DNA from: a phage
Strand: one strand, 5' to 3'
Length of the DNA: 3,634 bases
Sequence record: PZ049718.1
Below, piece after piece: positions 1 to 3,634 of the stretch; the stretch's first letter is position 1, and every line of letters starts with the position of its first letter. The position numbers and the translations under genes are program-made. Below the pieces are notes generated by a model, which searched no databases, was not told the DNA's origin, and saw only the letters and a list, made by a program, of their open reading frames with translations.

Positions 1-1015
1 CCGCAGTGGCGGGAATGCGCCCGAGGCGTACCGTTCCCCTGCCCTCTCGCGCATTAATTTGATCGACCACGGCCATCAGTCGATCGGCACCTAGGCGCGG
101 GGCGGCGGCGAACAGGTCACCAGTGAATTCGCCTCGCTGCCGCAGATCCATCAGCAGCACCTCGGCTTTGCTGTAGGCGTAGCCATGCCGGTAGATCGCT
201 TCAAGCCCGCGCACGGCTGCAGCGGCGAGCACGCGAGTGTCGTCGGTCGGGTACGGCAGAGGGCAGCTGATGGCGTTCGCGTATCGCGGCTGGTTGGGGT
301 TGTGCATGCCGGTACGGATGGCAACCTGCAGCGCGCCGGCCAGACTTTGCTGGGAGCGCAGCTTCTCGGCGGCCTTGGTAACGTAGGCCACGACCGCCTC
401 GCGGATCGGTGCGATGTCGCGCAGGCGGCTGCCAAACATTTTCGAGGAGCAGATCATCTGCCGGGGCGGTACCGCCTCCTCCAGCTCAAGGCAGGAGATT
501 CCATGCAGCTCGCGGGCGGTTTTCTCCAGCACCACGCTGAATTGCTTTCGCAGCGATGCGGAATCGTACTGCGCTAGGTCCCAGGCGGTCTGGATGCCCA
601 GCGGGCGCAGGCGGGTAGTCAGGCGCCGGCCGACGCCCCACACTTCGCTCACCTCGGTCATCTTCAGCAGCCGGTCGCGTCGCTCCGGGTCGCTTAGGTC
701 GATCACACCGCCGGATTTGCGCCAGGTCTTGGCTGCCCAGTTGGCGAGCTTAGCCAAGGTCTTCGTTGGCCCGATGCCCACGCCAACCGGTATGCCGGTC
801 CACCGCAGCACACGCTCACGCGTCTCATACCCTAGCGGCACCAGGTCGCCGGTTATCCCCGTCAGGTCGGCAAACGCCTCGTCGATGCTGTACACCTCGA
901 TTCGCAGGGAACATTCCCTCGATGACGTCGTCATCACCCTGGCGCTCATGTGTCCGTTTATGTGTAATAGAAAGTCAATAAGAACCGGGCCATGCTCGCC
1001 CTTGGAGCTTCTCAT
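1..1015 (-). CDS. umuC: Y-family translesion DNA polymerase, UmuC/RulB family (Pol V catalytic subunit), 5'-truncated remnant. Recognisable homology covers about 2-955; the N-terminal ~85 aa are replaced by unrelated sequence; the 3' end continues past position 1. Probably a disrupted, non-functional gene.
   Basis: Minus-strand translation reads ...HMSARVMTTSSRECSLRIEVYSIDEAFADLTGITGDLVPLGYETRERVLRWTGIPVGVGIGPTKTLAKLANWAAKTWRKSGGVIDLSDPERRDRLLKMTEVSEVWGVGRRLTTRLRPLGIQTAWDLAQYDSASLRKQFSVVLEKTARELHGISCLELEEAVPPRQMICSSKMFGSRLRDIAPIREAVVAYVTKAAEKLRSQQSLAGALQVAIRTGMHNPNQPRYANAISCPLPYPTDDTRVLAAAAVRGLEAIYRHGYAYSKAEVLLMDLRQRGEFTGDLFAAAPRLGADRLMAVVDQINAREGRGTVRLGRIPATA and continues off the edge. It matches E. 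coli UmuC motifs recalled from memory: YSIDEAF (active-site Asp-Glu), the GIxxTKTLAKLAN helix-hairpin-helix, VWGIGRR, and the C-terminal LNAKEGRGT. It is absent from the ORF track because its stop lies beyond the left edge. The same frame has an in-frame stop at 1070-1072 and a first in-frame ATG at 1013-1015, but UmuC similarity begins only near 955. The symbol is used in the family sense; rulB, mucB or impB cannot be told apart from sequence alone. Confidence 0.85.
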   Translation of the reverse strand, partial: MRSSKGEHGPVLIDFLLHINGHMSARVMTTSSRECSLRIEVYSIDEAFADLTGITGDLVPLGYETRERVLRWTGIPVGVGIGPTKTLAKLANWAAKTWRKSGGVIDLSDPERRDRLLKMTEVSEVWGVGRRLTTRLRPLGIQTAWDLAQYDSASLRKQFSVVLEKTARELHGISCLELEEAVPPRQMICSSKMFGSRLRDIAPIREAVVAYVTKAAEKLRSQQSLAGALQVAIRTGMHNPNQPRYANAISCPLPYPTDDTRVLAAAAVRGLEAIYRHGYAYSKAEVLLMDLRQRGEFTGDLFAAAPRLGADRLMAVVDQINAREGRGTVRLGRIPATA

Positions 1016-1464
1016 ACCCAACCGGTATGGCTGTAGCTTCTGAGGAGATCGCCGTCGCTCACCGGATCATCCGGTCATCCTGTTAGTAACCGGTCAAAGC
1101 TGATCTGTTACATCGAAGGCGGACACCTGTCCATCGACAACACCCCTGCCGAGCGGTGAACCGCCCTCCCATGTACATATGACCAAAACGTCGCCGTTAT
1201 CCTACCGTTCTGTCATGCCTACCCACGACGGAGTATTGACGGTCTCCGTCCTATAACATAGCTTTTCCGAAAGGCGCTCAAGTACATATCGTCATGTGCA
1301 TACGAGCCTCGTGTCGTTAAAAGAAATGGTTGGTGCCGCATGAAAGTGCTCTTCATGATGCCGTTCGGCGTGTCGAGCTTCTCCGCCCCCATCAAGATCA
1401 AGGCTTCGTCTTGGTGTTAGTGCCAGATGCACGTCACCTTGCGGTGCAGGAATGGAGTGTGAAC

Positions 1465-1827
1465 ATGAAAGCAGAAACGGAATCGCGGATTTTTTCGGTG
1501 GACGAATATGTCCGTCCGTCTAACGGCGAACCGATCCGTTCAGTTGTTCTGGAGACCAACGATTCTGTCGTTGTAGTTTGGCACGCCTACCCTAGGCAGG
1601 AAATAGCTGCCCATGTCCATCCTCACGGCCAAGATACTTGGACGGTTATCTCAGGTGAGGCCAAGTATTATCAAGGCAACGGCGTAGAAATTCATCTTAA
1701 AGCTGGAGATATTGCCATTGCAAAACCTGGGCAAGTACATGGTGCCGTGAACTCTGGTCCAGGACCTTTCATATTTGTCTCCGTGGTTGCGCCGGGCAGT
1801 GCAGGTTTTGCGTTATCTGAGAAATAG
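1465..1827 (+). CDS. Cupin-domain protein (cupin_2-type small beta-barrel, probable metal-binding), 120 aa
   Basis: This is the in-frame inner start of track ORF 1330..1827. The ATG at 1465 is preceded by GGAG at 1454-1457 (7 nt spacing); the longer upstream extension has no ribosome-binding site. Translation MKAETESRIF...AAHVHPHGQDTWTVISGEAKYY...KAGDIAIAKPGQVHGAVNSG carries both classical cupin motifs: HxH(x)3-4[E/Q/D](x)6G as H50-V-H52...G64, and G(x)5-6PG(x)2H(x)3N as G81...P88-G89-QV-H92-GAV-N96. Confidence 0.8.
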   Translation: MKAETESRIFSVDEYVRPSNGEPIRSVVLETNDSVVVVWHAYPRQEIAAHVHPHGQDTWTVISGEAKYYQGNGVEIHLKAGDIAIAKPGQVHGAVNSGPGPFIFVSVVAPGSAGFALSEK

Positions 1828-1850
1828 GCGAAAGGCCTGAGAGGAACCTG

Positions 1851-2414
1851 ATGAATACACGAGTATTTACGTTCGCTGGTGGAGAAACGGGGGTTTGGCG
1901 CGTTGTTGCGATGAATGCCGTGGCAGGAGCCCCTCTCCCTGGAATCCCACGGCTCAACGTAGCCGCTGGCTCTGTTTCGCCGCAGCCTCCGGGCACCAAA
2001 TGGCTCCTTCGCGGGATAACGAGTAACGAGCGCTATGTCGTGCGTGAAGAGAAGGATCGTCTCGTGGCGAAGCAGCCAAGCTTGGGTCGAGCAGAGGCTA
2101 CCTGCGCCGCCCTGATCCCTATCCGGAAAAACCCCTCATGGTGGGGACTGTCTCAAGACGAACGCCGGAAGATTTTTGAGGAACAGTCCCGTCACATTCA
2201 CATCGGGCTCCAATATCTCCCTGCTGTGGCCCGCCGCCTCCACCATTGTCGGGACCTGGGCGAGAACGAACCCTTCGACTTCTTGACTTGGTTCGAATAT
2301 TCCCCGTCTGATGAGACGGCCTTTAACAGGCTTCTGGCCGAACTCCGAGCCTCGGTGGAGTGGCAGTATGTCGACAGAGAAATCGACATCCGGCTAGTGC
2401 ATGAGCCGGCCTAG
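1851..2414 (+). CDS. cld: Chlorite dismutase family protein, short clade-2 (Nitrobacter/Klebsiella-type) Cld-like haem enzyme, 187 aa; probable chlorite O2-lyase
   Basis: Track ORF 1851..2414. The ATG is preceded by AGAGGA at 1841-1846 and lies 23 bp after the cupin stop, so the two genes are probably co-transcribed. Translation contains hallmarks recalled for the Cld family: LIPIRK followed by the adjacent Trp pair W97-W98, then SRHIHIGLQYLPAVARRL with a candidate proximal His115 (2193-2195) and distal Arg128 (2232-2234) 13 residues apart, the same spacing as the His/Arg pairs in characterised Clds, followed by FDFLTWFEY. Length and lack of a signal peptide fit the short cytoplasmic clade-2 enzymes. 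The family call rests on memory of motifs, not a search. Confidence 0.75.
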   Translation: MNTRVFTFAGGETGVWRVVAMNAVAGAPLPGIPRLNVAAGSVSPQPPGTKWLLRGITSNERYVVREEKDRLVAKQPSLGRAEATCAALIPIRKNPSWWGLSQDERRKIFEEQSRHIHIGLQYLPAVARRLHHCRDLGENEPFDFLTWFEYSPSDETAFNRLLAELRASVEWQYVDREIDIRLVHEPA

Positions 2415-2558
2415 CATCAGGTTTAACTTCGATCTACGTGCGGCACACTCCTGCGACACCCGCAGCCCAGCAAAACCCCGAAAAATCTAGTGTGTCGCAT
2501 AACTTAGGAGTAACGCGACAGGTATGTCTAGCGAGCCACTAGTCGCTTAAGAACTTTT

Positions 2559-3634
2559 CTACTTATAGCCTCCTCTTTCTCTCATCGATCTCCTCGGCAT
2601 CCTGCCGTCTAGAGCCGGCACATTGTCCAGCTTTCGAATGAGGCTCTCCAGCTTTTCCAAGTCGCCCTCGGCAATGGCTCGCTCGTCGGGAGTTAAAGGC
2701 ACGGCCTCCAAGTACCGTCCGATAGACGATTTGCTTTCCAATGCTTGGGCCCTTGCGCTGGCTTTCGGCAAGTTGAAGTCACACCCCGCACAGGCCATGC
2801 GATGTGGGCAGCTGCTCCAGAAGGGATTTGAACAATACGAGTCGCCCAAGTCATAGAAGGTGTAGGGGGCATCTGAATGGCGAACAATTACGTCATGATC
2901 GATCAAAACGGAGACCATATGGGCCATTTGATCGGCTTTAACGAAGGATGCTGCCAGCTTGGTAGGCCGAATTCGAATGTAATGCAAAGTCGAATTCGGC
3001 GAGCTATGTCCCGACCACTGCATTAGCTCGATCAGCGACATGCCCTGAGGGACGCTGGCGAGCGCCGTCACTGCGGAGGCACGTCCCCGGTGGCTGGTGA
3101 TTCGCCCGCGACTGTCCTCCAGTGGCACACCCGCCTTGGCGCATAGCATTGGAATGATGGTGCCATTAATGACACTGGAGCCTATGCGCTTGCCTCGAAA
3201 CTGAAATAGGTAGCTAACTTTTTCCCCGGTTCGCTCATCCAGCAAAGCGGCCTGGTTAGCAGGCCTGTCCTCCAGCCAGGCGTCAATGCGCTCCTTCACG
3301 ACCACCGCTACAGGTTTGACGAAAGCTTTGAACGTCTTGCTGGCAGGAATATCGAGATAGCATAAAGTTTTTGCTGGAACGATGGTCCCATCCTCGTGTA
3401 CCACATCATTGGTCTGAGGATGCGCGCATCTTTTATCCAAGCGCATGATTTCATTGCTGCGCAAACCAGCGTGCGTCCACACTACAGCAATGGCTTGAAC
3501 CATCGACAGCGGATAGTGAATCTCCGAAAGCAGATCACTACGCTCAAGATTTAGACTCGCCCAAATCAGCTTGAGCCAGGTCGAGTCATCAATTACCCGC
3601 GGGTTGATACCCGAGTTGAATGTCACGGATCGCG
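2559..3634 (-). CDS. Tyrosine-type site-specific recombinase/integrase, partial (N-terminal core-binding domain lies beyond the right edge), with a ~139 aa extension after the catalytic Tyr
   Basis: Track ORF 2559..3626. The listed start is a GTG and the frame stays open to the window edge, so the gene is 5'-partial. The catalytic signature is complete: Arg-I in VWTHAGLRSNEIMRLD (R56), HxxR in SHRGRAS (H179, R182), the second His/Trp in QWSGHSS (H207) and the nucleophilic Tyr in TLHYIRI (Y216, plus-strand 2979-2981). Only ~50 aa precede Arg-I within the window, consistent with a missing N-terminal domain. Stop codon TAG at 2559-2561. Confidence 0.9.
   Translation of the reverse strand, partial: RSVTFNSGINPRVIDDSTWLKLIWASLNLERSDLLSEIHYPLSMVQAIAVVWTHAGLRSNEIMRLDKRCAHPQTNDVVHEDGTIVPAKTLCYLDIPASKTFKAFVKPVAVVVKERIDAWLEDRPANQAALLDERTGEKVSYLFQFRGKRIGSSVINGTIIPMLCAKAGVPLEDSRGRITSHRGRASAVTALASVPQGMSLIELMQWSGHSSPNSTLHYIRIRPTKLAASFVKADQMAHMVSVLIDHDVIVRHSDAPYTFYDLGDSYCSNPFWSSCPHRMACAGCDFNLPKASARAQALESKSSIGRYLEAVPLTPDERAIAEGDLEKLESLIRKLDNVPALDGRMPRRSMRERGGYK

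Follow-up and report, generated by a model that had tools for sequence, protein, structure and literature searches.

A clade-2 chlorite dismutase and a small cupin as probable cargo of a umuC/rulB-targeting integrative element

The phage sequence record PZ049718.1 contains a cupin gene followed closely by a chlorite dismutase (cld) gene, and the locus raises three questions: whether the Cld decomposes chlorite, what moves the pair, and what the cupin contributes. The whole stretch of DNA analysed here, 3,634 nucleotides, is referred to as the window (Table 1). A first-pass annotation, made from the letters alone, had described two plus-strand genes 23 bp apart, each with its own Shine-Dalgarno sequence, in foreign DNA of lower GC content next to a recombinase gene. 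These features were all found. A GGAG motif precedes the cupin ATG by 7 nt, a GAGGA motif precedes the cld ATG by 5 nt, and RefSeq annotators called the two genes alike in identical DNA. The GC content is 53.9% in 956-3634 versus 65.2% in the umuC part (1-955). The neighbouring gene, a Pfam Phage_integrase match, is convergent with cld, stops at 2559 and extends past the window end. The umuC piece lacks ~78 N-terminal codons, its break falling after the TA of a Tyr codon in the motif SSNYxLY–G(D/H)MS (at the dash); it matches NCBIfam UmuC (E 1.9e-96, profile positions 79-389 covered) and Pfam IMS, IMS_C and DUF4113. This umuC flank differs from that of PA7.

Table 1. Features of the window, with strand and the basis of each assignment.
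Feature	Position	Strand	Basis
umuC 3' part (DNA polymerase V, Y-family)	1..955	-	translation, profiles, junction analysis
Left part of the element, 2,678 bp	957..3634	.	100% identity to plasmid copies
IS66-like short remnant (translation ending in KLICYIEGGHLSIDNTPAER and a stop)	1085..1159	+	translation; resemblance only
Two GTACATAT copies, 1173-1180 and 1282-1289	1173..1289	+	conserved in Klebsiella version
Cupin gene, 120 aa, from its ATG	1465..1827	+	Cupin_2 profile, 3H8U match
Spacer, 23 bp, with the cld Shine-Dalgarno GAGGA	1828..1850	+	sequence
cld gene, 187 aa	1851..2414	+	identical to PaCld; PF06778
721-aa tyrosine recombinase gene (WP_011914409.1), 3' 358 codons	2559..3634	-	translation, Pfam Phage_integrase

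The product of ORF 1851-2414 is PaCld (WP_026084028.1, PDB 9GTJ; 100% over 187 aa, E 3.6e-128 in a PDB search), with no difference at the protein level. PaCld is a dimeric clade-2 (lineage II) enzyme whose 0.99 Å crystal structure assigns His115 as the proximal histidine and Arg128 as the distal arginine (Nokas et al., FEBS J 2025, PMC12525007). Both residues are found in the ORF, so that the proximal His and distal Arg picked out in the first-pass annotation are borne out by the structure of the identical protein. Arg128 also aligns to Arg127 of CCld, the residue mutated in variant 7OUA. O2 evolution from chlorite by PaCld has been measured at pH 5.5 (kcat 1145 s–1, KM 1.01 mM, kcat/KM 1.14e6 M–1 s–1; PMC12525007). 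Since the window Cld is identical to the assayed PaCld, it is a true chlorite-decomposing clade-2 Cld, of the type that had been proposed. It also aligns over its full length with dimeric Clds of 183-188 aa, has the short clade-2 form (~180-190 aa, without the clade-1 N-terminal domain) and lies close to the validated clade-2 enzymes CCld (5K8Z) and NwCld (3QPI; E ~1e-57 to 1e-59).

The profile searches proposed earlier placed both proteins above the Pfam cut-offs, and for the Cld the match to PF06778 (Chlor_dismutase) was modest (32.1 bits vs a cut-off of 25, E 1.1e-7) and spanned just the C-terminal half, while NCBIfam profiles assigned it to no family. On these two observations the ORF might be read as HemQ (coproheme decarboxylase) or another non-dismutase Cld-family protein working in heme metabolism. 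That assignment has next to no probability and is already refuted by the published assay: the identical protein produces O2 from chlorite at ~1e6 M–1 s–1 and carries the distal Arg128, and its similarity to CCld and NwCld (E ~1e-58) argues in the same direction. The HemQ branch was accordingly rejected. The chlorite-decomposing Cld is a cytoplasmic, dimeric, heme-b enzyme converting chlorite to chloride and O2, as measured for the identical protein, and its role in hosts that do not respire (per)chlorate is likely to be chlorite detoxification, as judged from a 95%-identical Klebsiella enzyme and the literature. Nitrate reductases that act on chlorate, or chlorine-based oxidants, would be the source of the chlorite. 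The paper on PaCld mentions neither the cupin neighbour nor a mobile element (PMC12525007).

That the pair is integrase-mobilised cargo, as had been suggested, is supported by the flanking DNA. From 955-957 to 3634 the window is 100% identical to 12 Pseudomonas and Stutzerimonas plasmids, and in complete copies the shared unit is a constant 4,842 bp (TTTATGTGTAATAG ... CCACCTAACTTA), starting at window position 957. Beyond the window end it comprises the rest of the 721-aa recombinase gene (full length in L001 and L003), a 339-aa XerC/D-like integrase gene and a 58-nt right arm; the two recombinase genes are in tandem with a 4-bp overlap. The identical unit was found in 14 loci, flanked by at least 9 different umuC alleles that are all cut at the same codon. 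The insertion point, after the TA in SSN(Y/F)xLY, is shared by the window, L001, L003, L010, L011, L013, L014, L016-L018 and the Pseudomonas syringae plasmid pPP1-1. In L003 the split umuC could be rebuilt from a 78-aa N-terminal ORF ending SSNYSLY and the 3' part. Stutzerimonas chloritidismutans AW-1 carries two copies of the element, and two genome contigs have the length of the element. We infer mobility of the element from the identical copies in at least nine umuC alleles across genera, the AW-1 copies and the element-length contigs. The vehicle of the cupin-cld pair would be a site-specific integrative element of 4.84 kb, an "integron-like element" (ILE) of the kind that targets rulB/umuC. 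Its XerC/D-like 339-aa and its 721-aa tyrosine recombinase would insert it after the Tyr-codon TA of the conserved SSNYxLY motif. Such an insertion would split umuC and leave its 3' half abutting the cupin-side element end, the arrangement in the window; the putative junction of an excised circle would read …CTAACTTA[A] / TTTATGTG… (the slash marking the joint). A search for terminal repeats of the element, inverted or direct, gave none, and an NCBIfam profile search assigned the 721-aa recombinase to no family. Two insertions are reversed and displaced by 4 bp, so that the mechanism of recombination is defined only in part.

Among known mobile systems, the element closely resembles the two-recombinase ILEs that carry type III effectors (T3SE ILEs) in P. 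syringae (Jackson et al. 2011, as described in Rhodes et al. 2014, PMC4542609). The fixed-site insertion into rulB/umuC and the order of integrase and large recombinase are both found in the window element. The full order is also the same, namely rulA/umuD, a rulB' 5' fragment, an integrase of ~336-339 aa, a recombinase of 713-721 aa, cargo on the opposite strand and the rulB 3' part. Against the rulB insert of pPP1-1 from P. syringae pv. pisi, the backbone shows 73% identity across 3.2 kb, and the 339-aa and 721-aa recombinases share 83% and 81% of their residues with their counterparts. Both elements have conserved ends and sit at the same insertion point. The distance from the element end to the integrase ATG is 58 nt, which matches the ~60 bp given for T3SE ILEs (Rhodes et al. 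2014, PMC4542609). The differences lie in cargo and hosts: where pPP1-1 carries a type III effector, the window element has cupin-cld and an IS66 remnant, and elements of the window type occur in P. aeruginosa, Stutzerimonas and other pseudomonads.

Two other groups of elements were compared. The three-recombinase rulB ILEs (ILE-FH1/4/5, PAGI-5, RGP63; Rhodes et al. 2014, PMC4542609) and GInts (Bardaji et al. 2017) use the same rulB/umuC hot-spot, with a GAT at the insertion point that is a few bases off the site used here, carry fitness cargo and in some records adjoin an element of the window type (e.g. with mer genes in L001). They have three or four recombination genes instead of two. BLASTP of the two element recombinases against the trio module in L002 gave no similarity, and a direct relation was rejected. 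The tandem small and large tyrosine recombinases and the lack of inverted repeats also resemble Tn554. Membership was considered and not adopted: the element has neither an annotated nor an otherwise visible tnpC-like ORF, and Staphylococcus is absent among the 40 recombinase homologues listed, which were sampled across the ranking of 578 plasmid records.

A Klebsiella pneumoniae plasmid locus (KpCld-type Cld WP_001097412.1; cupin WP_001348195.1, structure 3H8U) has the gene order and 23-bp spacer of the window, with Cld 94.7% and cupin 89% identical, and this type of locus was found in 473 plasmid records at 90-95% DNA identity. It has retained the umuC junction of the window and an element end related to that of the window. 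In contrast to the window element it is decayed, with a longer IS66 pseudogene upstream and only the 3' end of the recombinase gene, cut by IS66 and IS26, and it moves inside IS26-bounded plasmid segments, not via its own recombinases. Its reading as the decayed sister of the window element is an addition of the present survey. A modest further point is that, with a umuC/rulB ILE as vehicle and the Klebsiella locus as its fossil, cargo of clinical plasmids is tied to an effector shuttle of plant pathogens. Another kind of vehicle is represented by the ISAde1 (ISPsy30-like) and ISIde3 (ISPa38-like) transposons, in which a clade-2 cld adjoins a Cupin_2 gene from the family of the window cupin (Clark et al. 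2013, PMC3735179). The same arrangements were recovered here as cld-137 bp-cupin (L040, L042, L044) and cupin-160 bp-cld (L038). These units differ from the window in gene order and spacing, in having a Cld just 63-64% identical, and in relying on DDE transposases (Tn3 family) instead of tyrosine recombinases.

We asked how constant the pairing is. Recurrent cupin-cld pairing, a gene-neighbourhood check proposed in the first-pass annotation, was readily observed: the pair is present in 538 plasmid records, well above chance, in three arrangements (cupin-23 bp-cld, cld-137 bp-cupin and cupin-160 bp-cld). The 23-bp spacer keeps its length in every copy and variant of the window unit, with the same spacing in 14 genome loci and in the Klebsiella version. 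Viewed from the cupin side the picture is different. A cld lies within 6 kb of the cupin in 18 of 80 species-level loci and is absent from 62 (48 of which are flanked on each side by 1.5 kb of sequence or more); similarly, none of three sampled cupin homologues has a cld neighbour. We conclude from the 62/80 loci that the coupling is facultative when viewed from the cupin side, an observation added by the present survey. The suggestion that the cupin depends on Cld, for instance by using Cld-made O2, is weakened by the same count.

The linkage could partly reflect co-hitchhiking on mobile DNA. Taken to its limit, the cupin would be an unrelated passenger that adjoins cld through cargo accretion, with no functional link. 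To this reading we give a minor though appreciable share of probability. The 62 loci without cld nearby are in its favour, as are the cupins alone on Tn3-family transposons (12 loci) and in other, varied contexts, and the published counts (1,487 cupin-linked genomes, with 1,591 entries of the cupin subfamily vs 8,790 Cld entries in the same table; Barnum & Coates 2022). Mere accretion fits less well with the recurrence of adjacency in at least three orders or spacings on three kinds of mobile element, with its persistence in divergent sequences (cld 63-64%, cupin 70-80% identical to the window's) and with retention of the 23-bp spacer in the 89/95% and 89/94.7% variants. Moreover, cld is the most frequent non-overlapping neighbour of the cupin (the 18 loci above), and the clustering coefficient of the cupin is the lowest among non-Cld subfamilies in the published network (Barnum & Coates 2022). 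Other recurring neighbours in the 80 loci were mobile-element genes and a few lineage-specific ones (SDR, ECF sigma with anti-sigma, urea-type ABC transporter), and no conserved neighbour beyond these and cld was found.

The partner had been described as a His-rich metal-binding cupin; the profile and alignment data agree with a His-rich cupin, for which metal binding is predicted. The protein matches PF07883 (Cupin_2; 50.1 bits vs a cut-off of 27.2, E 2.2e-13) and is ~89-90% identical to the uncharacterised Klebsiella structure 3H8U (E 2.8e-70), on which a literature search found nothing. Profile and model agree on a single-domain Cupin_2 beta-barrel. The AlphaFold model (pLDDT 86) has 3H8U as its top structural match, followed by the minimal cupins 1V70, TM1459, KdgF and archaeal PMI; beyond these generic minimal cupins, the fold search gave no functional lead. 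In an alignment of 19 homologues His50, His52, Gln56, Asp57 and His92 are invariant. The acidic position of cupin motif 1 (canonical HxH...E) is occupied by the invariant Gln56, followed by Asp57, and His92 is the histidine of motif 2. The protein may be a small metal-binding enzyme or protein, with His50, His52, Gln56 and His92 invariant. Its conservation is very strong, as the best homologues, which include Pseudomonadota and one cyanobacterium, are 68-83% identical. In three loci a homologue neighbours genes for an ECF sigma factor and for an anti-sigma factor of the zinc-finger type, an arrangement in favour of a stress role.

Many cupins are dioxygenases. Some sources label the homologues "quercetin dioxygenase-like cupin", and tight linkage of the two genes would suit an O2-making and O2-consuming couple, in which Cld supplies a cupin dioxygenase acting on an organic substrate, as in the co-substrate idea of the first-pass annotation. 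We regard this as improbable, as the cupin is mostly found without cld, the 120-aa protein is a minimal barrel without a substrate-specific lid whose nearest folds are generic, and genes of a substrate pathway are absent from the 4.84-kb element. [quoted passage not shown] In the perchlorate reduction genomic island (PRI) of Azospira, a cupin mutant has a fitness defect specific to chlorite stress, although that cupin (Dsui_0153) may belong to another subfamily. A bolder idea, which we hold only tentatively, is that the ~118-aa cupin is a defence enzyme in its own right, spread by horizontal transfer and directed at chlorine oxyanions or reactive chlorine species; it may, for example, remove HOCl or ClO2, or repair a chlorination product. 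If so, Cld would be one among several optional partners, and chlorine-based disinfectants would be the selective force behind the spread of the cupin on clinical plasmids and transposons.

Taken as a whole, the explanation that a umuC/rulB element of the ILE type carries a true Cld, with the cupin as a stress accessory, is in our judgement probably correct. The first-pass annotation is right in all observed details and sound in its interpretation, without being novel: the cupin-cld pairing and its mobility on mobile elements had been published (Clark et al. 2013, PMC3735179; Barnum & Coates 2022, who list cupin-linked cld in 1,487 genomes of 40 genera), and the structure and kinetics of PaCld are also in print. 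Functional coupling of cupin and Cld is a hypothesis, one already put forward in the same two papers. Outside (per)chlorate respirers cld is a marker of exposure to oxidised chlorine, and its spread on Klebsiella, E. coli and Pseudomonas plasmids is relevant to how well bacteria tolerate chlorate, chlorite and chlorine-based disinfectants. The cupin is among the uncharacterised genes most strongly linked to Cld and also travels widely without it; it should therefore be tested as a stand-alone stress protein and not solely as a Cld helper.

Within the window, the two genes are probably co-transcribed, because the spacer is only 23 bp and no terminator was detected. Just two terminator-like sites were seen, one within the cupin reading frame and one at the umuC junction, no more than in shuffled sequence, and a simple scan for sigma-70-type promoters gave none upstream of the cupin. 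The translation of the IS66-like remnant resembles the C-terminal IDNNxAER region of IS66-family transposases; a Pfam search with it gave no match. A longer, frameshifted IS66-like ORF occupies the matching position in the Klebsiella locus L004. Close homology to the enterobacterial version starts at this remnant. Upstream of the cupin gene, GTACATAT occurs twice versus 0.03 matches expected by chance, the first copy sits inside the palindrome ATGTACAT, and both copies are kept in the Klebsiella version; judged from the sequence, they may be a candidate operator or promoter-region element.

Four coding features are present in the window, and everything described from the sequence in the first-pass annotation was confirmed: the genes, a 23-bp spacer between cupin and cld, Shine-Dalgarno sites upstream of both ATGs (GGAG for the cupin, GAGGA for cld), a recombinase, and a drop in GC from 65.2% in the umuC part to 53.9% in the remainder.

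Coding features of the window
Feature	Coordinates	Strand	Basis
umuC, 3' three-quarters	1-955	-	NCBIfam UmuC, E 1.9e-96, from profile position 79; Pfam IMS, IMS_C, DUF4113
Cupin gene, 120 aa	1465-1827	+	Cupin_2, E 2.2e-13
cld gene, 187 aa	1851-2414	+	Chlor_dismutase, 32 bits (cut-off 25)
Tyrosine recombinase, C-terminal half	2559 to window end	-	Translation and profile search

Cupin and cld are probably co-transcribed; simple scans identified no promoter or terminator in the window. GTACATAT occurs twice upstream of the cupin (1173-1180 and 1282-1289, 109 bp apart), where chance predicts 0.03 occurrences; the copy at 1173-1180 falls inside the palindrome ATGTACAT, and both copies are kept in the Klebsiella version of the locus (see below). 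Judged from the sequence, the paired sites may be regulatory, serving as an operator.

The window Cld is identical across all 187 residues to PDB 9GTJ. This is PaCld, a dimeric heme-b clade-2 Cld with a structure at 0.99 Å, in which His115 is proximal and Arg128 distal (FEBS J 2025, PMC12525007). Both residues are present in the window protein, as are Lys93, Trp97 and Glu170, and Arg128 aligns with the Cyanothece Cld position altered in the Arg127 variant 7OUA. The candidate distal arginine is therefore assigned in the structure of an identical protein, and the Chlor_dismutase profile score, above its cut-off, places the product within the Cld family. Chlorite decomposition, proposed initially from these residues, has been published for PaCld by O2 evolution assay (kcat/KM = 1.14 × 10^6 M-1 s-1, pH 5.5; PMC12525007). 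These results demonstrate the Cld chemistry; chlorite detoxification is presumably the selected trait.

Earlier literature already covers the enzyme, its pairing with the cupin, their mobility and the hypothesis of a functional coupling. Previously it has been reported that cld-like genes of a type-II subclade associate with Cupin_2 genes and mobile elements, and that the Pseudomonas PK pair is syntenic with a P. stutzeri A1501 region of "phage-associated, UV resistance genes"; a functional cupin-cld connection was put forward there as a hypothesis (Clark et al., 2013, PMC3735179). Barnum & Coates (2022) found the cupin together with Cld in 1,487 genomes from 40 genera, and in 90% of the neighbourhoods whose identical Clds are common to several genera. 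Their Cld-linked subfamilies include the cupin WP_011914407, the recombinases WP_011914409 and WP_011914410, a 73-aa umuC fragment, umuD and a DUF4113 polymerase, which are the very proteins of the window's locus. The initial interpretation, a mobile cupin-cld module for chlorite or reactive-chlorine detoxification, is supported, and the remaining value lies in the function of the cupin and in recognising that a umuC/rulB integron-like element (ILE) is the vehicle.

From 955-957 to its end, the window matches 12 plasmids of Pseudomonas and Stutzerimonas with 100% identity. Comparison of 14 loci defined a constant 4,842-bp unit, TTTATGTGTAATAG…CCACCTAACTTA, that carries cupin, cld and, on the opposite strand, genes for a 721-aa recombinase and a 339-aa XerC/D-like integrase, which overlap by 4 bp; no terminal inverted repeats of the element were found. 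Every flank is a umuC-type gene interrupted within the Tyr codon of SSNYxLY|G(D/H)MS, just behind its TA (window junction 955/957); nine or more distinct alleles are represented, and the same codon is interrupted in rulB of the P. syringae plasmid pPP1-1. Both umuC halves are retained downstream of umuD in S. stutzeri S116, and S. chloritidismutans AW-1 has two element copies. These observations demonstrate site-specific placement of the element. In two of the compared loci (L002 14000/18842 and L009 5492/10334) the element is inverted relative to umuC and the junction is offset by 4 bp; another (L012 5492) has the usual orientation, yet the 4-bp-shifted junction. The shifted junction, CTCTA^CCAA^TCGCTC, hints at a ~4-bp overlap or coupling region transferred between sites. 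Two draft contigs (L008, 4,848 bp, P. abietaniphila; L015, 4,854 bp, P. pseudonitroreducens) consist of the 4,842-bp element plus 3–9 flanking bases and nothing else, as expected if the element is circular or present in several copies. In the umuDC operons that the element targets on Stutzerimonas and Pseudomonas plasmids, a 373-aa AAA-domain protein is encoded between umuD and umuC (19096-20217 in L003, a locus in which the split umuC could be reconstructed).

The rulB insert of pPP1-1 (P. syringae pv. pisi) has end sequences and insertion point in common with the element; the two backbones are 73% identical over 3.2 kb and the recombinases 83% and 81% identical, and a type III effector occupies the position of cupin-cld. 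In the element the integrase gene begins 58 nt from rulB', against ~60 bp in effector-carrying rulB ILEs (Rhodes et al., 2014, PMC4542609, citing Jackson et al., 2011). By this sequence comparison, the element matches the description of effector-carrying rulB ILEs. The better-studied three-recombinase ILEs share the hot-spot with the element, and no BLASTP similarity was detected between the trio module of L002 (392, 576 and 679 aa) and the element's recombinases. [quoted passage not shown]

The pair was also found at 90–95% DNA identity in 473 plasmid records, and Klebsiella is the most frequent genus among all matching records (382 of 538). One plasmid of the 90–95% group encodes a Cld 94.7% and a cupin 89% identical to those of the window, and the 23-bp spacer is retained. 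Upstream in the Klebsiella locus, what remains of umuC meets a sister element's left end at the same junction, and a longer IS66 pseudogene follows; downstream, the recombinase gene is reduced to its 3' end, followed by IS66 and IS26. The remnant umuC, sister-element end and truncated recombinase indicate that this locus is a decayed relative of the window's element. Upstream of the window's cupin, a short remnant resembling an IS66 transposase (1085-1159, plus strand) has a longer frameshifted counterpart in the Klebsiella plasmid locus (L004 5587-6201); the short piece gave no Pfam match, so its assignment to IS66 is by resemblance alone.

The cupin shares ~90% sequence identity with 3H8U, deposited by structural genomics for a K. 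pneumoniae MGH 78578 protein annotated as uncharacterised. Its AlphaFold model (pLDDT 86) matched 3H8U best, then the generic minimal cupins TM1459, KdgF and archaeal PMI, and these fold matches indicated no specific function. Homologues are unusually conserved (best matches 68–83% identical; those with organism names are mostly Pseudomonadota, plus the cyanobacterium Synechococcus sp. NIES-970), with His50, His52, Gln56, Asp57 and His92 conserved without exception across 19 aligned sequences. A mutant of a cupin gene in the Azospira perchlorate island, possibly of another cupin subfamily, had a fitness defect limited to chlorite stress. We infer that the window's cupin is a reactive-chlorine accessory.

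Neighbourhoods were surveyed around the cupin (one genome per species, best 80 loci kept, cld counted within 6 kb). Cld was still the commonest neighbour, yet was found in only 18 of 80 loci, so the cupin-cld link is real but facultative. Fourteen of the 18 are the window unit or its 89/95% variant, three have cld, 137 bp, then cupin, and one has cupin, 160 bp, then cld. The other 62 loci are cld-free (48 of them flanked on each side by 1.5 kb or more), and none of three further cupin homologues had a cld neighbour. The recurrent pairing that had been anticipated is thus borne out by these 18 loci and the 538 plasmid records. The cld-free loci weaken the proposal that the cupin depends on O2 supplied by Cld.

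In three loci (L028 6359-7321, L068 and L076) genes for an ECF sigma factor, a zf-HC2 anti-sigma factor and a Cys_rich_CWC protein directly adjoin the cupin; this redox-stress type of module fits a stress role of the cupin. In 12 loci the cupin rides on a Tn3-family transposon that also has a nucleotidyltransferase gene; elsewhere it occurs with SDR oxidoreductases or, in methanotrophs, a urea-type ABC transporter. As a Tn3-family passenger (L032, L034-L039, L046, L050-L052), it adjoins a toxin-antitoxin-like nucleotidyltransferase and a resolvase, with cld only in L038. In Piscinibacter defluvii, a second, distant cld-like match (L042 8843-9163, 32% identity) lies 2.5 kb downstream of a cld-cupin pair and may be part of a chlorate-reduction cluster.
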